Source: Candidatus Kerfeldbacteria bacterium
GTDB lineage: Bacteria > Patescibacteriota > Patescibacteriia > JACPL01
Assembly: GCA_016182525.1 (NCBI GenBank)
Contig: JACPGL010000029.1
Coordinates: forward strand, 22,997-86,996
Direction of reading: 5' to 3'
Length of the DNA stretch: 64,000 nucleotides
The notes beneath the pieces were generated by a model. The model was not told where the DNA came from, ran no database searches, and worked only from the letters and a program-made list of their open reading frames with translations. Positions 5,638 through 24,482 of this stretch are shown here, piece by piece (position 1 is the first letter of the stretch; each line of letters starts with the position of its first letter). The position numbers and the translations under genes are program-made.

Positions 5638-7275
5638 TTACCCCCTCTTTGAGTGTGCAATTGAAGCGGCGATGAAGTCGCGGTACAATGGGTGCGGGCG
5701 AAGCGGGCGAGAAAGAAATTCGGGGTGAAATTGCGTGCCGACAAACCACGGGTGATCGCGAAGTTCGATAATTTCCACAAGGGTTTTCGCCGGGTACACT
5801 CCTGAGAATCGAACTCCGGCTTCTTCCATTGCTTTTCGATAGTCGTTATTGAACTCAAATCGGTGTCGATGCCGTTCAAAAATTTTTGGCTTTTTGTAAG
5901 CACGGAATGCTAAAGAATCTTTCGCGAGCGTACATGGATACAACCCAAGACGCATTGTCCCACCCATCCGTTTCCGTTGGATGTTTTCTTGCTGGAAGGG
6001 GTTGGCAATGATGACCGGTTCGGGTGTTTTGGGATCAATTTCTCGAGTATTCGCTTTGGGTTTCTTGAGTACGTTCCGCGTAAACTCTACACAGGCAAGT
6101 TGCATGCCATAGCACAACCCGAAATATGGGATATTGTTCTTTCGCACAAATTCAATGGCGCGAATGACGCCTTCAATGCCGCGCGACCCAAATCCACCCG
6201 GAACAATAATCCCATCATATTTTGCAAGCTCACGGACTTTTCGCGGATTGCGTTCGTACTGTTCAGCATCAATCCATGTCATCTGCGGTTTGCGCTTGTG
6301 ATACCACGATGCGTGCTTCACTGCCTCAATCACGGAAATGTATGAATCCGCAAGCGTGAAGTTCCCTGTGCCAAAGTATTTGCCGACAACTCCAATCTTC
6401 ACCGGTGTTCGCGAAGTTCGAATGCGCCGCGAAAGCGCTCGCCATGGTTCAAGACGAGATGGCCGGTTCGCAAGTGACAACGCGGAGAGCAATCGCTCTC
6501 CCAGGCGCTCCTTTTCAAACACCAGCGGCACATCATAAATCGAGTCAACATCCGGTGCAGAGATCACGTGTTCTTTTGGCACACCGCATGCAATAGACAA
6601 CTTCTCACGCCGTCGGACGTCCAAAGGCTTTTCAGCGCGGCAGACAATGAAATCCGCTTGAATTCCGGCACTATTCAACGAACGAGATGCATATTGTGTC
6701 GGCTTGGTTTTCATCTCCCCTACCTTGCTCGGAATAGGCAAGTAGCTCACCAGCACAAATGCAACATCAGCCGGATGCTCCAGCTTCATCATACGAGCTG
6801 CTTCAAGAAAAAGAATATTTTGGTATTCCCCCACTGTTCCGCCGATCTCAATAACCGTGATATCCGCTTTTGCGTGCTTTTGCGCCGTGGTAATGCGGCG
6901 GATGATTTCCTCCGGAACATGAGGCACGACTTCGACGCACTTGCCGTGATATTCCAAATTCCGCTCGCGTTGAATCACCGTTTGGTAGACGCGACCGGTA
7001 GTGAAATAATTGACCGAGGTGATCGATTCATCTAGGAATCGTTCGTAGTTGCCAATATCCTGATCCGTCTCGTCGCCGTCATCCGTGACAAACGTCTCCC
7101 CATGTTCTGTGGGATTCATGGTCCCTGCGTCAACGTTGATGTAGGGATCGGCTTTGAGCGCCGTCACACGGTATCCTTTGCTCTTCAAAAGGAGCGACAA
7201 TGCCGATGTCGCCACTCCTTTGCCGACAGAAGACATCACTCCACCAGAAACAAAGATAAATTTTGGATTTGGCAT
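5638..7275 (-). CDS. pyrG: CTP synthase
   Basis: The N-terminus KFIFVSGGVMSSVGKGVATSALSLLL is the CTP synthase signature, and a glutamine amidotransferase C-domain is present. Length is 545 aa. Confidence 0.95.
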   Translation of the reverse strand: MPNPKFIFVSGGVMSSVGKGVATSALSLLLKSKGYRVTALKADPYINVDAGTMNPTEHGETFVTDDGDETDQDIGNYERFLDESITSVNYFTTGRVYQTVIQRERNLEYHGKCVEVVPHVPEEIIRRITTAQKHAKADITVIEIGGTVGEYQNILFLEAARMMKLEHPADVAFVLVSYLPIPSKVGEMKTKPTQYASRSLNSAGIQADFIVCRAEKPLDVRRREKLSIACGVPKEHVISAPDVDSIYDVPLVFEKERLGERLLSALSLANRPSRLEPWRALSRRIRTSRTPVKIGVVGKYFGTGNFTLADSYISVIEAVKHASWYHKRKPQMTWIDAEQYERNPRKVRELAKYDGIIVPGGFGSRGIEGVIRAIEFVRKNNIPYFGLCYGMQLACVEFTRNVLKKPKANTREIDPKTPEPVIIANPFQQENIQRKRMGGTMRLGLYPCTLAKDSLAFRAYKKPKIFERHRHRFEFNNDYRKAMEEAGVRFSGVYPAKTLVEIIELRDHPWFVGTQFHPEFLSRPLRPHPLYRDFIAASIAHSKRG

Positions 7276-10691: not shown

Positions 10692-12041
10692 ATGGATATT
10701 AAACTGCGCCGCGGGCTCTATCTTTCGTTCATTCTGGCTTTTATCGTCCTCTCGCCGATTATTCTTGGGTATGCCCGCGGGTATCGGTATTCTTTCCAGC
10801 AAAAGCGCATTGTCCAGACAGGGATTGCGATCTTGGAATCTCAACCAAGCAATGCGAATATCGTTATTGACGACCAACCGACCGATATGCGCACGCTTGC
10901 AACGATAAAGAATCTTCGTCCCAACGATTACGTTTTTACCGTCAGAAAAGACGGCTACGCCCCGTGGTCAAAGAAGCTCACGATCAGCGCAGGCGCGGCG
11001 ACGATTGCTGATCGGATTACGCTTTTTCGAGAGCAGCCTGAACAAAAGAATGTGCGTGACGATCTTCTCACGCTCGCTCTCCGCTCAAGACGCGAGGAAA
11101 TTCTGTATACCGTCAAGAGAGAGGACGGCGCGACAGAACTCCATCGCTACCATACCGGTTCTGCAAGTGATATTCTGATTTACGAAACACTGGATCCAAT
11201 CGAATCGTACACACTTTCGCGTCATGGAACAGCGGTGTTGATCTCTCAAACGCCCGCGGTCGGGAATCCACGCGTCATTGTTCAAAATACCTATCGCCCA
11301 TCAGACAACATTCCCCTCTCCGATCTGGTGGATGTGCCGATCCTCACCACTCGCTGGTCGGAGGATTCCGATGATGTGGTTTTTGTGCGGTCGGCAGAAA
11401 AATCCTTCATTGCCAATCTCTCCACTCGGCGCGTTCTTGAACTCGATCTGAAGGAGTTTGAAAATGCGGTGTACTTTCTCACGCATGTGCATCTCTATAC
11501 TGTTCAAAACGGAGTCCTCACCATGATCAACACGGAAGACCAAAAGCGTCAAATCCTCTCTGAAGGAATTACTGGGAGCATTTCCACGTGTCCATATTCG
11601 TCAGATCGACTGGCGATCAGTTCGCTCAAGAATCAAAAATTCATGATCCTCACTGATCTTGAAAACTCGCCCAAGATTCACACGCTCGATCAGCGCGTCA
11701 CAGGATGCGAGTGGTCGCATGACGGGAGTGAGCTGTTATTTTGGAATGAGTTTGAGATCGGCGTGTACTCAATCAAGACGCGAGTCACGGAGATTCTGAA
11801 TCGGGTGAGCACTCCTATTCGACTTGTGCAGTTTTTCCCGAATGAGTTTGCAGTTGTGGTTCTTACGGAAGATGGAACCGTTTCGGCGCTTGAACGCGAC
11901 GGCCGTGACCGGAGAAATCATTCTGTACTTGGAGAGGATGTGGATTTTTTTACGCTTTCAAATGATGGGAAAAGTCTCTTCGTTGAGAGAAAGGATGATG
12001 CAACAGGCTTTTTGAGTCTTGAATCGTTGACTATTCAGTAA
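10692..12041 (+). CDS. PEGA-domain protein with N-terminal TM anchor and C-terminal beta-propeller-like region
   Basis: It has an N-terminal TM (LYLSFILAFIVLSPIIL). The PEGA-like segment is ANIVIDDQPTDMRTLATIKNLRPNDYVFTVRKDGYAPWSKKLTI. Confidence 0.55.
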   Translation: MDIKLRRGLYLSFILAFIVLSPIILGYARGYRYSFQQKRIVQTGIAILESQPSNANIVIDDQPTDMRTLATIKNLRPNDYVFTVRKDGYAPWSKKLTISAGAATIADRITLFREQPEQKNVRDDLLTLALRSRREEILYTVKREDGATELHRYHTGSASDILIYETLDPIESYTLSRHGTAVLISQTPAVGNPRVIVQNTYRPSDNIPLSDLVDVPILTTRWSEDSDDVVFVRSAEKSFIANLSTRRVLELDLKEFENAVYFLTHVHLYTVQNGVLTMINTEDQKRQILSEGITGSISTCPYSSDRLAISSLKNQKFMILTDLENSPKIHTLDQRVTGCEWSHDGSELLFWNEFEIGVYSIKTRVTEILNRVSTPIRLVQFFPNEFAVVVLTEDGTVSALERDGRDRRNHSVLGEDVDFFTLSNDGKSLFVERKDDATGFLSLESLTIQ

Positions 12042-12861
12042 GGTATGCGCAAAGAGCCTTTTGCCACGAGCGAAGCGGCGGCATTTTTGTGTTGTGCAAG
12101 GAGGAGGTGGCCGGACGTTTCGTTGGTGTAGGGTAATCTTTTGTCTGGATCGGGGTCACGGTGACAGCGCTTTTCGAAAGTGAAAAAATCTCGCAAGCAA
12201 AGGCGTACCATGTGGTCTCTTCTTCGTTCACGGCGTGGTAGATGCCGTACGGATAGTGATTCGCGTGCTCAAGAAGGAAGCGTGTTGCGAGTGCAACATC
12301 TTTTGTCCAAGTCGATTTGCCGTGCTGATCATTCACGACTCGTATCTCTGATTTTTCGCGAGCAAGGCGGAGCATCGTATCGACAAAATTCTTACCGTTT
12401 TTCCCGTAGAGCCAGGAGGTGCGAAGAAGATAATACGCATCGCTGTTCAGGGCGAGTTGCCGCTCCCCTTCGACTTTTGAACGCCCATAGGCGCCAATGG
12501 GATGAACCGGATCATCTTCGCGATATCCCTCTTTACGCGCTCCATCAAAGACATAATCCGTGCTGTAGTGCACCAACACAGCTTTCGCCTTTTTTGCTGC
12601 ACGCGCAAGGATGCCAACGGCTTCTCCATTGATCTGTGTGGCGAGCGCTTCTTCAGATTCTGCGCCATCGACATTGGTATATGCCGCGGCGTTGATCACG
12701 ACAGTGGGTTTCACCTCTTCTAACGTCCGCCGAACTTGTAACTCGTTCGTAATGTCGCAGTTGGACTGATCACGTCCAATCGGCGACAAATCAGAAAACA
12801 CCTCCATCAGGTCTGTCCCCAACATGCCCTTCGCCCCGAAAATAAGAAGTTTCATACTCAT
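12031..12861 (-). CDS. rfbD: dTDP-4-dehydrorhamnose reductase
   Basis: MKLLIFGAKGMLGTDL...VINAAAYTNVDGAESE...YSTDYVFDG is a typical RmlD sequence. Confidence 0.9.
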   Translation of the reverse strand: MSMKLLIFGAKGMLGTDLMEVFSDLSPIGRDQSNCDITNELQVRRTLEEVKPTVVINAAAYTNVDGAESEEALATQINGEAVGILARAAKKAKAVLVHYSTDYVFDGARKEGYREDDPVHPIGAYGRSKVEGERQLALNSDAYYLLRTSWLYGKNGKNFVDTMLRLAREKSEIRVVNDQHGKSTWTKDVALATRFLLEHANHYPYGIYHAVNEEETTWYAFACEIFSLSKSAVTVTPIQTKDYPTPTKRPATSSLHNTKMPPLRSWQKALCAYLTE

Positions 12862-13280
12862 TCAAAGATATAGCCCACGGGTCCTGTCAGCGGGCACCCT
12901 GTCACACCTCGCTCCACGCTCGCTTCGCTCCCAGCTACGCTCGGTGTGACCGCTTTCCCGCTGCCACCCGTCGTGACCTCACCTCTTGAGAAGATGTGGA
13001 ACGACAGCCAGAATACGTTCGAGAACCACTTCCCGAGGAGGGGGTAAGGAGATCGCGAGAACGGAAAGGGGTCGCGGAGGAGGCTCCGGAGGCCCGAGCG
13101 GGCATGGATGCCGGTCGAATCGACCGGCAGAGCGAGGGCCGAGGAAGAGCGCAAAATCCTCGCAGGGGATTTTGACGCGTACTCCGAAGCGACACCTTTC
13201 CGGGCTCGCGGATTTTTGAGAGATCCTTCGACTCGCTTTGCTCGCTGAAGGCATGACAGTTCTGCTGGTGACTCAAGCGA
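12862..13280. other. High-GC (~63%) noncoding element A between rfbB and rfbD. It contains a perfect 17-nt palindrome (ccggtcgaatcgaccgg, 13111-13127) and shares motifs with element B.
   Basis: No protein-like ORF is present; only low-complexity ORFs of the kind expected from GC bias. It shares GAGATCCTTCGAC...ATGACAGTTC and CGCTTTGC(C)TCG motifs with 17055-17264. Confidence 0.4.
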
Positions 13281-14282
13281 TTAAGAATTCTGATACTGCT
13301 TTTTGTAGTACTCGAGATACTCGCCGCTCTTGAGCGGTTTCCACCACGACTCATTCGCTTTGTACCACTCAATGGTCGCCTCAAGCGCGCGGTCAAGGTC
13401 ATATTCAGGTTTCCATCCAAGTTTAGCGAGTTTGGACCAATCAAGAGAATACCGACGGTCATGGCCAAGCCGGTCTTTGACATACTCGATCATGTCCTCG
13501 GACGTGCTCATGGCGGCAAGAATCTTTTTTGTCAGCTCAAGGTTTGTGATTTCATTGCCCGATCCGATGTTGTACACTTCTCCGATCTCCCCTTTTGTCA
13601 TGATCGTATCAATGGCTCGGCAGTAGTCTTCGGTATAAATATACTCGCGAACATTCAATCCATCACCATAGAGCGGAACTTTTTTCCCTTCCATCAGGTT
13701 GGTAATGAACAGCGGGATCACTTTTTCGGGATACTGATACGGCCCAATGAAATTCACACTGTGTGTCACGATGACTGGCGTTCCATATGTTCGAAAATAC
13801 GCGCGGCACAGGTGATCGCCACCGGCTTTTGAGGCGGAATATGGGCTATTGGGTTCGAATGGACTTTCTTCGGTAAATTTTCCCTTTTCAATACTGCCAA
13901 ACACTTCGTCGGTCGAAATTTGGATGAATTTGCCCGTTCCGTGCTTTTTGATGGCTTCGAGAAGCGTGTACGATCCCAGCACATCCGTCATGATAAAGGC
14001 TTTCGGGTCCAAGATCGATCGGTCAACATGGGTTTCTGCAGCAAAGTTCACCACCACATCAGGTTTTGTCTGAAACACACGCTCAACATCTCCCTCGTTT
14101 GCAATGTCACCCTTGATGAACGAATATCGTTTATCACGTTCAACATCGCGAAGATTTTCAAGATTCCCGGCGTAGGTCAGCTTATCAAAATTCACCACCC
14201 GAACGTCTTGATACGTTTTAAGGAGATAGTGGATAAAGTTGGAGCCCATGAATCCTGCTCCGCCGGTAACGAGAATGGTCAT
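13281..14282 (-). CDS. rfbB: dTDP-glucose 4,6-dehydratase
   Basis: [21 protein letters not shown] is an SDR N-terminus and the RmlB-type sequence continues throughout. Length is 333 aa. Confidence 0.95.
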   Translation of the reverse strand: MTILVTGGAGFMGSNFIHYLLKTYQDVRVVNFDKLTYAGNLENLRDVERDKRYSFIKGDIANEGDVERVFQTKPDVVVNFAAETHVDRSILDPKAFIMTDVLGSYTLLEAIKKHGTGKFIQISTDEVFGSIEKGKFTEESPFEPNSPYSASKAGGDHLCRAYFRTYGTPVIVTHSVNFIGPYQYPEKVIPLFITNLMEGKKVPLYGDGLNVREYIYTEDYCRAIDTIMTKGEIGEVYNIGSGNEITNLELTKKILAAMSTSEDMIEYVKDRLGHDRRYSLDWSKLAKLGWKPEYDLDRALEATIEWYKANESWWKPLKSGEYLEYYKKQYQNS

Positions 14283-14291
14283 AGAGAGAGT

Positions 14292-16497
<2,206 letters not shown>

Positions 16498-16514: not shown

Positions 16515-17054
16515 TTAGCTTTGGACATGCGAAAGATAGAGGAGGTATGCGGCGAGTGTGAGAGAATCGGTGATTTCACCAGCGCGTATCATATCCTGAA
16601 ATCGCGCTTGTGTCACTGTTTTCTGGGGGAGCCGGCCTTCATGTTCATCGGGCTGGAATGCATCACTCGAAAAAAGCTTGCGACCAAGATACACAAATGC
16701 CTTCTGCGCTACCGTCCCAGGTGCGACCTCAAACTCACCGATGAGCGTAAACTCTTTTGCATCATACCCGGTTTCTTCAATGCATTCTCGTCGTGCTCCC
16801 TCTTCTGGCGTTTCACCGGCTTCTGAAGCTCCCATGGGAAATTCCCACGAGCGCTGTTTCTGCAAATACCGATACGGGTGCACAAGAAGAAACTGATCGT
16901 CGTGGGTCACCGGGACGACGATGCAACAAGGAAGTTTTTCGATGTAGTGATACTTCCCGCGCGATCCATCTGACCGCTCAAACTCGTCAATACGATACGT
17001 GTGAAACGGATTTTCGTCAACAATTTTTGAGGAGAGTGTTTTCCAGATAGTCAT
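16515..17054 (-). CDS. NUDIX hydrolase
   Basis: It carries a canonical Nudix box: GASEAGETPEEGARRECIEETGY. Confidence 0.75.
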   Translation of the reverse strand: MTIWKTLSSKIVDENPFHTYRIDEFERSDGSRGKYHYIEKLPCCIVVPVTHDDQFLLVHPYRYLQKQRSWEFPMGASEAGETPEEGARRECIEETGYDAKEFTLIGEFEVAPGTVAQKAFVYLGRKLFSSDAFQPDEHEGRLPQKTVTQARFQDMIRAGEITDSLTLAAYLLYLSHVQS

Positions 17055-17074
17055 AGAAGTACAGGAAAGGGTAA

Positions 17075-17251
17075 GTGGGTAAAGAAGGATGCTGTGAAGG
17101 GGATTCCGCAGCGCGAGCGGCCATGGTGTCCCGAACTGAGATCCTTCGACAAGCTCAGGATGACAGTTCGGGACGAGCGAGCGCGAGGCAAAGCGCGGCC
17201 GACGCGGTGGGTCGGCCGACGCGGCCCCTGAACAGCACCTTCTTTACCCAC
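17075..17251. repeat. Element B: a ~177-bp high-GC noncoding element bounded by 20-bp imperfect inverted repeats (17075-17095 gtgggtaaagaaggatgctgt; 17232-17251 acagcaccttctttacccac). It also has an internal 11-bp perfect stem (gtcccgaactg / cagttcgggac).
   Basis: The inverted repeats can be read directly. It lies between the rfbC stop and the nudix start and shares motifs with element A. Confidence 0.4.
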
Positions 17252-17264
17252 GACATCATCCCCC

Positions 17265-17819
17265 TTAGCTTGGCGTGTAGTCCCAAAATCCTTGGCCAAA
17301 GGAGTCAATGGGCAAGCGATACTCATCGCTCTTCTTCACGTCCGGCGAGAAGTGTCGGTTCACGAAGTAGAACAGCTCTGAATGCTCTGAAAGGGCTTTG
17401 TATCCATGGGCAACTCCGCGTGGAATGTATAAAAGATGGGCTCGGCCGGCACCCAAAACGAGCCGTTGAACCACGTCGTGCGTTTTCGAATCTTTTCGGC
17501 AATCTTTCAGGCCAATGAGCAATGTCGACGATGGCGGAACAAACCACACATCCTCTTGATTCATGTGGAGGTGCACGCCTTTCACTCTCCCTTTTTCCAA
17601 CACCGACCAACTAAACTGCGCCGGCACAAAACCAGCGAATCCTTGGAGCGCGCCTTTTGCCTCGGCTCGAACAATTTCAACAAACTCTCCACCATCATCG
17701 ATAAACCGTTTTGATTCGCTGACGACTACTCCAACGACTTTTTCGCGAGCGGAATAATCTTGCTTGGTGAGATCGGCATTTGCCGTCTCAGTTAACTCTT
17801 TCTCAGTCAATTTTTTCAT
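17265..17819 (-). CDS. rfbC: dTDP-4-dehydrorhamnose 3,5-epimerase
   Basis: The protein is 184 aa with a cupin RmlC-like sequence (GVHLHMNQEDVWFVPPSSTLLIGL...YIPRGVAHGY). Confidence 0.9.
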   Translation of the reverse strand: MKKLTEKELTETANADLTKQDYSAREKVVGVVVSESKRFIDDGGEFVEIVRAEAKGALQGFAGFVPAQFSWSVLEKGRVKGVHLHMNQEDVWFVPPSSTLLIGLKDCRKDSKTHDVVQRLVLGAGRAHLLYIPRGVAHGYKALSEHSELFYFVNRHFSPDVKKSDEYRLPIDSFGQGFWDYTPS

Positions 17820-17827
17820 AAAAAGTG

Positions 17828-18550
17828 TTAATCATCGTTTTCGCCCGCGAGTCGAGCCGCGAGTTTATACGCACGATATAATGAAGAGAATGTGCCGGCG
17901 TCGATCCATTCCCCTTTCACCGTCTCGACGTCGAGCTCGCCGAGCTTGAGATAGGCATTATGAACCTCGGTGATTTCAAGTTCTCCACGAGCAGACGGTT
18001 TGACGTGCTTTGCAATATCAACAACGCGGTTATCATAGACATACAATCCTGTGACGGCGTAATTGGAATCGGGTTGTTTTGGTTTTTCTTCAATACGCGT
18101 TGCTTTTCCTTCGTGATCAAACCACACCACGCCAAATCGCTCAGGATCAGGAACCTCTTTGGCAAACACTTTTCCGCCGCTTTTGAAACTTTGAATTTCT
18201 TGTGAAAGATCGTCCTCAAAAATGTTGTCTCCAAGAATCATGGCCACATCCTCGTGATCCAAAAAATCTTCACCGATAATAAACGCCTGCGCCAAACCCT
18301 CAGGCTTATCTTGAATTTCGTAGGTGAACTTCGCTCCGAACTCACGCCCCGAACCAAGAAGCCGCAAATAATCCCCTGCCCGATCCGGCGCAACAATAAC
18401 CAAGATCTCCTTGATCCCCGCTTTGAGAAGCGTCTCAAGAGGATAAAAAATCATCGGTTTGTTGTAGATCGGCAAAAGTTGCTTACTCGTCACTTTGGTC
18501 AGGGGCGAAAGACGAGATCCGGCTCCGCCAGAAAGAATAATCCCTTTCAT
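17828..18550 (-). CDS. rfbA: Glucose-1-phosphate thymidylyltransferase
   Basis: MKGIILSGGAGSRLSPLTKVTSKQLLPIYNKPMIFYPL is a canonical RmlA N-terminus. The ATG at 18548-18550 was used as the start. The listed ORF begins at an upstream TTG. Confidence 0.9.
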   Translation of the reverse strand: MKGIILSGGAGSRLSPLTKVTSKQLLPIYNKPMIFYPLETLLKAGIKEILVIVAPDRAGDYLRLLGSGREFGAKFTYEIQDKPEGLAQAFIIGEDFLDHEDVAMILGDNIFEDDLSQEIQSFKSGGKVFAKEVPDPERFGVVWFDHEGKATRIEEKPKQPDSNYAVTGLYVYDNRVVDIAKHVKPSARGELEITEVHNAYLKLGELDVETVKGEWIDAGTFSSLYRAYKLAARLAGENDD

Positions 18551-18846
18551 AAAAGGTTTGATGTTAAAATCCAAAAAAGAACACTTGCTGCAAGCGTGAT
18601 GGCATACGGGATCGTAATAATCTTTTCTTCATGCTCTCGAGCGGCGAAAGACGCGAGAAGTGCAAGAAAGAAAAGCAGCGCAACGGCCGTTATCCATGAA
18701 CGAATCGAAAACACAAAAGAAACCATCCCGGGGAATATTTCTTCAAGACCAAGAAGGACGAATGTTGTGACCAGAAAAACTTTCCCGAAAAAGACGGAGA
18801 GGTCTCCTACAGATGCCGCGATAGATTTCCAGTGTTGGATAGTCAT
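18547..18846 (-). CDS. Small polytopic membrane protein (99 aa, ~3 TM), function unknown
   Basis: It has three hydrophobic helices. ATGA-type overlaps link it to both flanking genes, suggesting a real, co-translated gene. Confidence 0.45.
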   Translation of the reverse strand: MTIQHWKSIAASVGDLSVFFGKVFLVTTFVLLGLEEIFPGMVSFVFSIRSWITAVALLFFLALLASFAAREHEEKIITIPYAITLAASVLFWILTSNLL

Positions 18847-21449: not shown

Positions 21450-24400
21450 TCAAGAATTTTCTGTTATCGAGACATCGGAAAACCATATCGGGCACTCGGC
21501 AAGCGTGCCGCTTTGTGGTTCGCTCGTCTGAAAGCGGATCTCGTGTTCCCCGTTGGCAATCATGAGCGCGAATCTCACAGGCGCAAACTCTGACCATGTG
21601 ATTTCTTTTTCGGAAACCTTTTTTCCATCTATGGTGGCGACAAGTGTTTGCCGACCCTCAGAACAGGTGCGAATATCTGCGGCAAACGTTGTCGAAATTT
21701 CATGCGCACTCGAATTGTGTACGACAATTTGCGCACCCTCATTCATCTTACGAACCTGCACCACGCTTCCCACTCGCTCCAGAATATCCCAATTTTTGCC
21801 AACGTGCGCCCATGGTTGTGAACTATCCTCTTTTGGCGCAATGGAATAGACGATCATATCATCTTGCGTTGACTGCGAAATAAGCGGAACGTATTGTTCA
21901 ATCATCGTGCGATAGGCATCTACGTCTTTTTCGGAAAGGAGATTAGTGTGGAGCACAATCGTTTTTGTTCCCGACCGCGCAAGAAAAGAGGAGATCGATG
22001 ACGCGTAGAACGAATCGTCGAAGATATCATGGTGAGCGCTGAACGAATCTTCGCCCTCGCCCGATCCATAAAAGAGAGCACTTCCAATCAGGGGAACCGA
22101 ATCGAGCGGTGAGAGATCTTCTGGCATTCCGAGAGAACGCGGTGACAGAATTCGCTCCTGTTCATCAGTGCGCGTTGTCGAGTATCCATGAAAAGGGATC
22201 TGGAGAACGGATCCATCGTTTTTGCTCAAGATCTGTTCATACACGCCGCGCGTCTTTGACATCCCGTCCGTTGAAATTTTTGTGATTTCAGCTTTTGCAC
22301 TGGCATCTTCGCCACCTTCAGACGTCTCCATTACAAACTGAATGCGCGTATCCTCTTGTGCAAGGGATGATGAAATGCGAAATCTCTGAAAATCCTTCGA
22401 AAGCGCAAAACGATAGGATTGCCCGTCTCCCCAATCAACGCGAAGCACCGAACCTTCTCGCCCCCGCGCAAACAATTGAAGCGTTGCGCCCTCCTGATGA
22501 AAGATATTCCGTATCGTAAGTTCTGCGCCCGTTTGCACGACTTGATACGCCAATCCTCCATCAACCTGATAGGGTTCCCATCCATTTTTTTCTATAAGGA
22601 GCGGCGCGGGCGTGATTGGAAAGAGATCGTCATTCAAGCGATACGCGGCCAATGTGTCATCTTCAAAAACCTTTCGAGCGGAGACCGCCTCCTCCAGAAA
22701 TGAACGAAGATACACATACTCCTCCAGAGGCATCTCTCGATCCCCCTCTCCGATAAACTCTTTGTGGAGGGTGATATACCGAATTCCAAACGATGAAAGA
22801 ATCGCCGTATTATTTTGCCGATTCAGCGTATCGATCGCCGAATGCGCTTGCGGGAATGCATCGTGCGGCAACTCATACAAGAGTTCCTTGAGGATCGGGA
22901 TTTCCTGATTGCGCTGAACGATGGGGTCGTTTGGATTTGACCGCGCAAACTGAAATGTATTGATCATCGGGCGCTGGTGAATCGCCTGATAATAGGTTGA
23001 GCGTGCCGCAGCTCTATAATTCGTCTCGCTCGGAATTTCAAGAATGGAGAAATTTCCCGGCTCATCTCGAATCATCGTATAGAACGGTGAATACGCGAGC
23101 GATGTCGTGGGGATTGGAACGGAGAAGTATTCTGTAACAAGCAATGCGCCAATTCCGACAATGGCAAGAGCTGCTCGGCGAGGATGACGTATCCTTTCGG
23201 CAATGTGAGCCACTGCAAACGCAAATACTACCGCAAAACACATATATGCGCTAACCGAAATCCGATCAATGGCGCGAATATTTTCAAAAAACGGAAAGGC
23301 TTTGTACAGCAAAAGGTATGGAAGAGGAATACGCGGCTCAATCACTCCTTGCACATGCAGATACGGCCCAAGCGAGAGAATATAAAAACCAACTCCTGCA
23401 AGCGTCCAAAACAAGATCTCGCGAGTCCGCTGGTGTACGAGAAGCATTGCAATGAGAATGATCAGGGTATAGCCAAGGTATGCCGAATAGTCAACCTCGT
23501 TTCCCGTAAAGGAGCTTCGGATCGGCTCAAAAAAATCTCCCCACACTCCATGCGTGAACGGCGGAACAACAGCGCTCAAGAGATCATTCGAGTACCGAAT
23601 GGCTTGTTCCTGCCCTGGGTTAAGCCAATTTTCTTGTGACGTTGCGATGCGGAGAAGTGGCAAATAGTGAAAAATACCAACCGCGACTGCAAGAATCAGT
23701 ACGGCAAAACTTGAAAAAAGAAAAACTCGATTTTTAAAAACGCTTCGATGATTCCAAAAAATAAACGGGAGAAAAACGATCAGAAACAAAGCGTAAAACG
23801 CAGCGAAATGATTTTCGCCCTGAATAAGGAGGAGCAAACTGAACAAAAGGGCGACCGCGGTTACGATACGCGGCCGGCGAACGAAACGCAGAATGAAAAA
23901 TGTGGTGAGTGGAATCCACTCAGTGTGCGTCGAGCCGGCAAATCCGAATGACCATGCGACGTGCGCCGGGTTAAAGGCGTAGATGACGCCGGCAAGAAAC
24001 GCCGCACCTTGAATAGTAAGGTACGTCCGAAAAGAATTATCCGTGGAACGAACTGTCCGACGATCATCGCCGCGCGAAACTACCCGAGCATTGTCATTGC
24101 GAGGAGTGAAACGACGAAGCAATCTCGATCCCTCAAGAACTTCTTTGGCAAGAAGATACATCCCGAATCCGGAAGCGATATACGAAAACATCCAAGACAA
24201 ATTGTACCCGAGCGGCGCGCCGAATATGGCATAGAGCGCGGTGTGGATGGTGATCGGGTCAACGCGTACATTTTTCACCGTATCCCATAGCGCACCAGCA
24301 TACCCAAGATCACGAAGGCGAGCATAATTATTGAGAATCTTCGAGAGCGTATAATGCATGTCGCTCCCCAAGCCCGCCGCTTCAGTCCCCACGTGTATAA

Positions 24401-24482
24401 TGACGGGATAGGTAAAAAGGAGTGTCAGGAGAACATACGCTGCGAAGATTCCAATGACGAAAAGGGTCGATAAACGTTTCAT
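21450..24482 (-). CDS. Large polytopic membrane protein (1010 aa); putative lipid-linked-sugar-dependent glycosyltransferase (GT-C/YfhO-like) with a ~500-aa extracytoplasmic C-terminal domain
   Basis: The N-terminal half has ≥12 TM helices. The first loop motif GLGSDMHYTL resembles the YfhO/GT-C D..QY loop. It sits adjacent to the GtrB-like GT2. Confidence 0.45.
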   Translation of the reverse strand: MKRLSTLFVIGIFAAYVLLTLLFTYPVIIHVGTEAAGLGSDMHYTLSKILNNYARLRDLGYAGALWDTVKNVRVDPITIHTALYAIFGAPLGYNLSWMFSYIASGFGMYLLAKEVLEGSRLLRRFTPRNDNARVVSRGDDRRTVRSTDNSFRTYLTIQGAAFLAGVIYAFNPAHVAWSFGFAGSTHTEWIPLTTFFILRFVRRPRIVTAVALLFSLLLLIQGENHFAAFYALFLIVFLPFIFWNHRSVFKNRVFLFSSFAVLILAVAVGIFHYLPLLRIATSQENWLNPGQEQAIRYSNDLLSAVVPPFTHGVWGDFFEPIRSSFTGNEVDYSAYLGYTLIILIAMLLVHQRTREILFWTLAGVGFYILSLGPYLHVQGVIEPRIPLPYLLLYKAFPFFENIRAIDRISVSAYMCFAVVFAFAVAHIAERIRHPRRAALAIVGIGALLVTEYFSVPIPTTSLAYSPFYTMIRDEPGNFSILEIPSETNYRAAARSTYYQAIHQRPMINTFQFARSNPNDPIVQRNQEIPILKELLYELPHDAFPQAHSAIDTLNRQNNTAILSSFGIRYITLHKEFIGEGDREMPLEEYVYLRSFLEEAVSARKVFEDDTLAAYRLNDDLFPITPAPLLIEKNGWEPYQVDGGLAYQVVQTGAELTIRNIFHQEGATLQLFARGREGSVLRVDWGDGQSYRFALSKDFQRFRISSSLAQEDTRIQFVMETSEGGEDASAKAEITKISTDGMSKTRGVYEQILSKNDGSVLQIPFHGYSTTRTDEQERILSPRSLGMPEDLSPLDSVPLIGSALFYGSGEGEDSFSAHHDIFDDSFYASSISSFLARSGTKTIVLHTNLLSEKDVDAYRTMIEQYVPLISQSTQDDMIVYSIAPKEDSSQPWAHVGKNWDILERVGSVVQVRKMNEGAQIVVHNSSAHEISTTFAADIRTCSEGRQTLVATIDGKKVSEKEITWSEFAPVRFALMIANGEHEIRFQTSEPQSGTLAECPIWFSDVSITENS

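Follow-up and report, generated by a model that had tools for sequence, protein, structure and literature searches.

What is the 210-bp, G+C-rich stretch that separates rmlC from a NUDIX hydrolase gene in a compact operon of a Candidatus Kerfeldbacteria bacterium, a member of the candidate phyla radiation (CPR)? This stretch, here called element B, lies on the minus strand between the rmlC stop and the NUDIX start (17055-17264) of a 64-kb window, by which we mean the whole stretch of DNA that was analysed. A sequence-only reading had described it as either a miniature inverted-repeat transposable element (MITE) or a structured RNA. We find that B is a lineage-specific non-coding insertion in the rml operon and that its core hairpin is a new sequence variant, in a CPR genome, of a known repeat class, the CGTC-tagged repetitive extragenic palindromic sequences (REPs) or Ssn-related motifs (SRMs), and neither a new RNA nor a classical MITE.

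Element B and its junction in relatives

The gene upstream of B encodes an RmlC of the dTDP-4-dehydrorhamnose 3,5-epimerase family (17265-17819, minus strand; Pfam PF00908; NCBI MBI2426754.1) and the gene downstream the NUDIX hydrolase (16515-17054, minus strand; Pfam PF00293; NCBI MBI2426753.1), consecutive proteins in a Candidatus Kerfeldbacteria metagenome-assembled genome. Because both align with their orthologues from end to end, the gene boundaries around B are sound. The G+C content of B is 61.4% (63.8% for 17075-17251), compared to 48% in the gene flanks and 49.3% in the window, so that the elevation pointed out in the sequence-only reading is real, although its figure of about 65% was slightly too high.

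Read in the sense of the genes, the 5' arm of an outer palindrome (17225-17251, minus strand) begins 13 nt after the rmlC stop, with a TGTC just ahead of it. This arm is followed by a G+C-rich hairpin on a direct repeat (CGGCCGACGCGG, present twice; ~17194-17226, minus strand, detected by repeat search and predicted fold), a linker rich in GCGCTCGC, the core hairpin unit within a private 11-bp stem, a second linker and the 3' palindrome arm (17075-17102, minus strand), which ends 20 nt ahead of the NUDIX ATG. The outer arms are complementary at 14/14 positions (17075-17088 / 17238-17251) and continue past a one-base bulge with 11/13 (17090-17102 / 17225-17237), giving about 27 bp in total and bearing out the 20/21 terminal inverted match reported earlier. 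The perfect 11-bp internal stem from the same reading is likewise present (GTCCCGAACTG / CAGTTCGGGAC, 17128-17138 / 17164-17174, minus strand); it is particular to B's copy and leads into a second short helix, ATCCT / AGGAT. Within it lies the core unit, cgaaCTGTC-AT-CCTGAGCTTGTCGAAGG-AT-C-TCAGttcg (17132-17170, minus strand), a TGTC-tagged variant of the REP/SRM type. We also note that ACCCAC (minus strand) in the loop of the G+C-rich hairpin (17206-17211) complements GTGGGT, the first six bases of the outer arm (17246-17251), an alternative pairing that may be due to chance.

The predicted fold of B reaches -105 kcal/mol on the minus strand (z -7.9) and -111 kcal/mol on the plus strand (z -8.5), a stability matched by 0 of 200 shuffles on either strand, and equal folding of both strands is what a DNA palindrome gives. 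Folded as DNA, the inner unit alone yields -15.3 kcal/mol (z -4.9), and the oriented hairpin is displayed by the minus strand in its single-stranded state; the T and G of its TGTC tag are paired by the local extra stem, leaving the TC unpaired.

The same junction in relatives shows that B is an insertion. In a relative whose NUDIX protein is 47% identical (L204), a 30-kb contig with the whole operon has only 2 bp between rmlC and the NUDIX gene and 3 bp between rmlB and rmlD, and in another (L202, rmlC 60% identical) the rmlC-NUDIX spacer measures 12 bp. A third (L203, NUDIX 76% identical) carries an unrelated 66-nt single hairpin at this position (-43 kcal/mol, z -6), while in a sister sample (L201, rmlC 79% identical) the junction begins like that of L203 and then diverges, the contig ending in a G+C-rich stretch. 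The junction sequence is not conserved among L203, L201 and the window genome, whose own junction is the 210-bp B. Since the junctions of relatives are short, we take the ancestral rmlC-NUDIX junction to have been compact, with one lineage gaining a hairpin and that of the window the 210-bp composite. A metagenome scan with rmlC returned only relatives at <=38% identity, hence no synteny information. The L203 hairpin (215-280 of that locus) has GTAG, the tag of the other REP superfamily, directly 5' of its stem, possibly by chance.

Two Logan contigs with an identical rmlC (L001 and L002) both break off exactly where B's inner hairpin begins, at its first base, a stop that probably reflects a branch in the assembly graph at a sequence repeated in the metagenome. 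The Logan contig of L202 ends 26 bp past rmlB. Such repeat hairpins appear to fragment short-read assemblies of this lineage.

The hairpin family of the core

A second G+C-rich gap of the same operon, element A (12862-13280, minus strand, 419 bp, between rmlB and rmlD), shares with B the module TCCTTCGAC...ATGACA, which in the window occurs in these two elements only, with 0 occurrences expected by chance. The sequence-only reading had listed three common motifs, and this module holds, whereas the third (CGAGGCAAAGCG) is a loose resemblance in inverted orientation. From the parts shared by A and B we derived a split pattern of 21 nt, AACTGTCAT-N5-30-GTCGAAGGATCT, and scanned species-representative genomes. 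The matches listed comprise more than 118 stretches from many phyla: Acidobacteriota, Clostridia, Bacteroidota, Verrucomicrobiota, Planctomycetota, Kiritimatiellia, Chloroflexota, Proteobacteria, Nitrospinota and Fibrobacter, as well as the CPR lineages Magasanikiibacteria and Berkelbacteria. A related pattern matched more than 120 IMG/VR contigs among the matches listed. The seven unforced bases after GTCAT read CCTGAGC in 93-98% of the listed matches, whose flanks are not conserved, and the exact 30-32 nt of B's unit recur with 100% identity in Verrucomicrobiota, Bacteroides, Nitrospinota (Nitrospinae) and Victivallales (loci L023, L032, L059, L072, L079, L095, L101 and L102). When the whole of A and B was compared by BLAST with all retrieved loci, matches were confined to the inner unit.

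A covariance model (R1) built from 58 copies scores B's unit at 47.5 bits (E 1e-10) and finds 195 copies in 100 loci (0.72 Mb), roughly double the seed count. In the covariation analysis, a check proposed in the sequence-only reading, the inner AT...AT stem is paired in 98% of cells across 146 distinct copies, with 48 double-sided changes versus 7.5 in shuffles, but the outermost helix, perfect in B, is paired in just 48% of family cells and is thus local to each copy. The layout common to the family consists of a (C/T)GTC head, the covarying AT...AT stem, a 3' C and a variable loop able to carry a hairpin. The unit centre spans 9-30 nt and consists of NAGCG pentamers in series or, alternatively, of a perfect additional hairpin whose sequence differs from copy to copy. 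In loci L003-L120 the loop lengthens by five-base steps, GAGCG-(NAGCG)n-NAGTCG, with common length classes 10 nt apart, a growth that looks like pentamer slippage within the hairpin.

With open reading frames (ORFs) called crudely, intergenic copies number 108 out of 120; the unit shares the strand of the upstream gene in 55 cases and opposes it in 36. Among neighbouring pairs within 150 nt, 21/29 are inverted, with the TGTC heads pointing outward and 0-56 nt between the units, and the arms of these head-outward dimers are often unlike in stem or loop. Judged by sequence and structure, then, the core of B belongs to a hairpin family that crosses phyla. An adapter or vector artefact was considered and rejected, since the copies covary, differ in their loops and are present in complete isolate genomes of Pedobacter and Gillisia; a full-text literature search for the motif sequence retrieved unrelated primers only.

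In a Candidatus Berkelbacteria locus (L052, 4664-5971, minus strand) a tsaD/Kae1-like gene contains two in-frame insertions of unit dimers, which read …NCHPEREQRVEGS…DSSTPPGGSAQNDK… twice and recall the Rickettsia palindromic elements inside genes. This gene is adjoined by a frameshifted ssn-like gene.

Units around GIY-YIG genes and the fit to published repeats

The Neisseria repeat dRS3 is part of a 28-nt hairpin, the NTS (CGTCATTCCCGCGMAVGCGGGAATCYRG), that is bound and cut, only as single-stranded DNA, by SsnA, a 94-aa single-domain GIY-YIG protein without action on RNA (Nat Commun 2025, PMC11893778). Binding needs the stem and the C after it and cleavage the three bases before the stem (GTC), whereas the identity of the loop and loop extensions are immaterial to SsnA, and ssn genes across phyla are flanked by SRMs in an NTS-ssnA-NTS arrangement (PMC11893778).

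Genes for GIY-YIG proteins of about 95 aa were flanked by units of B's family in 13 of 14 loci, namely in 3/3 loci selected by motif, 4/4 selected by protein and 6/7 viral contigs with full-length homologues. The motif-selected loci with a PF01541 gene come from Rickettsiales (L036), Thermomicrobiales (L065) and Berkelbacteria (L052, frameshifted), and in each of them one unit lies just upstream of the gene and an inverted unit at or past its stop. Among the protein-selected loci, that of Levybacteria (L205) has a unit close to B's, TGTCATCCTGAACTTGTTTCAGGATCTCGA, that stops one base ahead of the ATG, with an inverted unit spanning the stop codon; the gene is also flanked in Curtissbacteria (L207), Bacteroidota (L209) and Treponema (L210). 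On two viral contigs (L337 and L339), CGTCATTCCCGCGAAGGCGGGAATCCA, a fit to the published NTS consensus, stands upstream and its variant is inverted downstream. Units of the family thus flank Ssn-type genes. Because the nuclease genes are flanked by such units, and by the canonical NTS in L337 and L339, we take the nuclease family to be the Ssn family. At E<=1e-15 it counts more than 1,000 members, drawn among others from CPR, Treponema, Bacteroidota and Nanoarchaeota. Searches of NCBIfam and PDB with the sequence of the GIY-YIG protein returned generic GIY-YIG similarity only. Clustering of ORFs of >=90 aa near 120 copies revealed no recurrent neighbour, transposase-like or otherwise, a screen that was too coarse here because the partner gene encodes about 95 aa and is rare.

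Two of these loci show further peculiarities. The Rickettsiales ssn-like ORF (L036, 2861-3208, minus strand) extends into its downstream unit, so that the repeat supplies the codons for its C-terminal residues, …SLPSLRSLEMTNA. Just 3' of the Curtissbacteria ssn-like gene (L207, 1795-1860, minus strand), one unit is nested in the loop of another, TGTCATCCTCAA[..GTCCTGAACTTGATTCAGGATCT]TGATTGAGGATCAG.

How closely does the core of B fit the published descriptions? CGTC-tagged REPs have a CGTC head, often TGTC, a stem of 8-9 bp that starts with AT, a loop of 4-5 nt and a 3-nt tail, CCA, and have been reported in 5 phyla, with Neisseria dRS3/NTS and Rickettsia RPE-4/RPE-6 among their members (Di Nocera, De Gregorio and Rocco 2013, PMC3733652). 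According to the same study, inverted dimers predominate, heterodimers, variable spacers and some intragenic copies occur, some units lie within longer palindromes, and the repeats have no dedicated transposase (PMC3733652). In B's unit GTC stands directly 5' of the palindrome and C directly 3' (cTGTC-ATCCT...AGGAT-C), as in SRMs, its stem opens with AT as in the REPs, and its loop measures 3-11 nt depending on how pairs are counted. A graded series leads from the NTS (ATTCCCGCG...GCGGGAAT-CCA) through L333 and L209 (ATTCCGAAC...TTCGGAAT-CT) and L205 (ATCCTGAAC...TTTCAGGAT-CTC) to B (ATCCTGAGC...TCGAAGGAT-CTC). After its five Watson-Crick pairs, B's unit has the highly conserved GAGC and TCGA, which could form tandem G.A pairs and a G-C pair.

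Competing explanations and likeness to known systems

We consider it likely that B is a lineage-specific hairpin-in-palindrome insertion whose core is a copy of the CGTC-tagged REP/SRM class, with an Ssn-type mechanism of the kind proposed below. Several observations weigh against this. The outer palindrome and the G+C-rich hairpin stand alone: a search for the arms in the window and across about 2 Mb of retrieved loci yielded no further copy, and the hairpin has no relatives among all retrieved loci. R1 finds two strong copies and a marginal one in the window, all of them singletons, and the window holds no GIY-YIG gene. The nuclease gene is also present in 0/120 motif-selected viral loci, which indicates that most copies are orphans, as reported for REPs. 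The GIY-YIG family is equated with SsnA (CAX49033.1) on the strength of its size, its domain and the NTS beside its genes. The published SRM search pattern, HGTCWYN(0-2)YYVSBRHN(0-5)WNVSBRGN(0-2)RNCYNB, is matched by the canonical NTS with 0 substitutions, whereas the units of B and A each need at least 5, so that counts made with this pattern would miss B's unit. Finally, the five Watson-Crick pairs before the conserved GAGC / TCGA fall short of the 8-9 bp of CGTC-tagged REPs, and the tail is CTC instead of CCA.

If the whole of B were a MITE, that is a non-autonomous transposon moved via its terminal inverted repeats of about 20-27 bp by a transposase encoded elsewhere, this would account for the arms themselves (14/14, about 27 bp when extended), for a typical MITE size (177-210 bp), for the lack of B at the orthologous junction in relatives and for the break of same-strain Logan contigs within B. 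The break, however, falls at the inner hairpin and not at the arms, the interior of B is itself composed of other palindromes, and the further copies and target-site duplications for which the sequence-only reading had suggested a search were not found: the arms are single in the window and in the retrieved loci and are bordered by two unlike sequences, GGGTAA and GACATC. We therefore regard a MITE as unlikely, and retain from that proposal that B is a repeat-type element and not an ordinary spacer. Similarly improbable, in our estimate, is that B mainly serves as a host-selected intra-operon terminator, attenuator or mRNA-stability hairpin with the repeat unit being incidental. Its long stem does begin 13 nt past the rmlC stop, L203 has another hairpin at this junction, and REPs are mostly found downstream of ORFs, with roles in termination and stabilisation proposed (PMC3733652). 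Yet a promoter and terminator scan found no promoter, no terminator-like site and no T-run after the stem in B, two relatives (L202 and L204) are without any hairpin at the junction, and the sequence is not conserved among L203, L201 and the window.

The other proposal of the sequence-only reading, that a terminal helix closes a structured RNA encoded by B, be it a cis-regulator, a small RNA or a ribozyme, draws on the very stable predicted fold (z -7.9), on the compensatory changes and conserved unpaired bases of the family hairpin and on the operon sense orientation of both copies in A and B. The antisense strand nevertheless folds as well or better, relatives with this operon lack B at the corresponding junction, family members take either orientation relative to the upstream gene (55 same versus 36 opposite) and also occur inside coding sequences, and the published SsnA does not act on RNA. 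An Rfam scan, which that reading had called for, gave chance-level hits and no relevant match at gathering score or at E<=10 in the window, A, B or 16 family loci. We thus consider a structured RNA very improbable. Comparison by eye with hammerhead, kink-turn and tetraloop receptor motifs, and with attC sites, IS200/IS605 ends, oriT nic sites and the CsrA site, showed that the defining positions of none of these fit.

In the Ssn system as published, the hairpin takes shape in single-stranded DNA, where a GIY-YIG nuclease of about 95 aa (Ssn) binds the stem and the 3' C and cuts close to the GTC head. Hairpin-ssn-hairpin units resemble insertion sequences, with orphan units and head-outward dimers scattered across genomes. 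For B we propose that an Ssn encoded elsewhere in this genome, now or formerly, may recognise its copy, and units may spread via an Ssn-dependent process or one that targets hairpin loops. The composite B probably grew by stepwise insertion into hairpin loops, as suggested by the nested unit in L207, the published units within longer palindromes and the L203 hairpin at the same site. In the operon transcript, B may act like a REP or a bacterial interspersed mosaic element (BIME), forming a very stable RNA structure (about -105 kcal/mol) 13 nt past the rmlC stop that could shield the upstream mRNA or dampen downstream expression.

A broader proposal, which we put forward tentatively and hold to be doubtful, is that the TGTC-ATCCT-GAGC...TCGA-AGGAT-C hairpins constitute a distinct and widespread SRM subclass, associated with the GIY-YIG nuclease of about 95 aa, IS-like, inserting into loops and also in frame into essential genes. 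Its members would combine a short Watson-Crick stem, the non-canonical GAGC/TCGA and an expandable loop, would be near-identical from CPR to Bacteroidota, Verrucomicrobiota, Acidobacteriota and Clostridia and would frequently occur on predicted viral contigs, and their preferred insertion into hairpin loops would build nested composites such as B.

Element A, too, is a composite insertion in the same operon, which runs in the order rmlA-rmlC-NUDIX-pfkB-AdoHcyase-rmlB-rmlD with every gene on the minus strand; besides rmlC and the NUDIX gene, Pfam identifies rmlA (17828-18574), the pfkB kinase (15568-16497), AdoHcyase (14292-15545), rmlB (13281-14282) and rmlD (12031-12861). A has a G+C content of 60.9%, is absent from L204, and contains a degenerate hairpin unit in gene sense (13214-13263, minus strand; R1 38.6 bits, E 4e-8), oriented with the operon like that of B. 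Its overall fold is unremarkable (z -1.4), and it holds a 21-nt palindrome at 13109-13129. In L202, a stretch after rmlB (5944-5969, cgcgggtcctgtcgccatgggttccc) resembles the rmlD-proximal end of A (window 12876-12900, cacgggtcctgtcagcgggcaccc) in the opposite orientation relative to the genes, and the two may represent a second lineage-restricted repeat module. The marginal third unit of the window (24087-24132, plus strand; R1 14 bits, E 0.19) has a compensated stem, ATTGC / GCAAT. It sits inside an ORF of 1010 aa (21450-24482, minus strand), where it is translated as SRLLRRFTPRNDN. The corresponding protein of L201, an orthologue with 75% identity, reads SRLPRPYGPRNDN at this place, a degenerate form, and the window protein has 18 extra residues directly after SRLLRRFTPRNDN.

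Two odd G+C-rich gaps in a compact CPR operon can thus be explained as repeat insertions, which avoids their annotation as new RNAs or MITEs. The association of Ssn nucleases with SRM hairpins is extended to a variant that escapes the published pattern and to many more phyla, including CPR, and to viral contigs, while Ssn enzymes of further specificity are suggested by the conserved unpaired GAGC/TCGA and by the loop's tolerance of insertions. CPR bacteria rely on the uptake of DNA, and if Ssn-type nucleases do act on these hairpins there, the repeats could help to decide what incoming DNA persists. Short-read assemblies appear to break right at these hairpins, a point of relevance to binning and scaffolding.

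Compared to known systems, B's family resembles the SRM/NTS repeats in being an oriented multi-copy hairpin with a GTC head, an AT...AT stem, a 3' C and an insert-tolerant loop, with units upstream and inverted downstream of GIY-YIG genes of about 95 aa; it differs in the tail of B's unit (CTC/CTG versus CYRG) and in a loop that may grow by (NAGCG)n or take up an additional hairpin. With the CGTC-tagged REPs it has in common the C/TGTC head, AT as the first stem bases, a short unpaired tail, a predominance of inverted dimers with heterodimers and variable spacers, intragenic copies and units set in longer palindromes, but unlike these repeats, known from 5 phyla, the variant of B is also found in CPR, Acidobacteriota, Clostridia, Verrucomicrobiota, Planctomycetota, Chloroflexota and Nitrospinota. 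Bacterial MITEs resemble B in size, terminal inverted repeats and presence or absence between relatives, whereas B has neither a target-site duplication nor further arm copies in the window or the retrieved loci. The GTAG-tagged REPs and REPINs, which are mobilised by REP-associated tyrosine transposases (RAYTs), and the BIME clusters are likewise small extragenic hairpins with inverted doublets that can fold into one long hairpin, clusters of alternating orientation, a single-copy partner gene flanked by repeats and hairpins in single-stranded DNA; B's family is set apart from them by a head other than GTAG and by a partner that is a GIY-YIG nuclease instead of a Y1/HUH enzyme.

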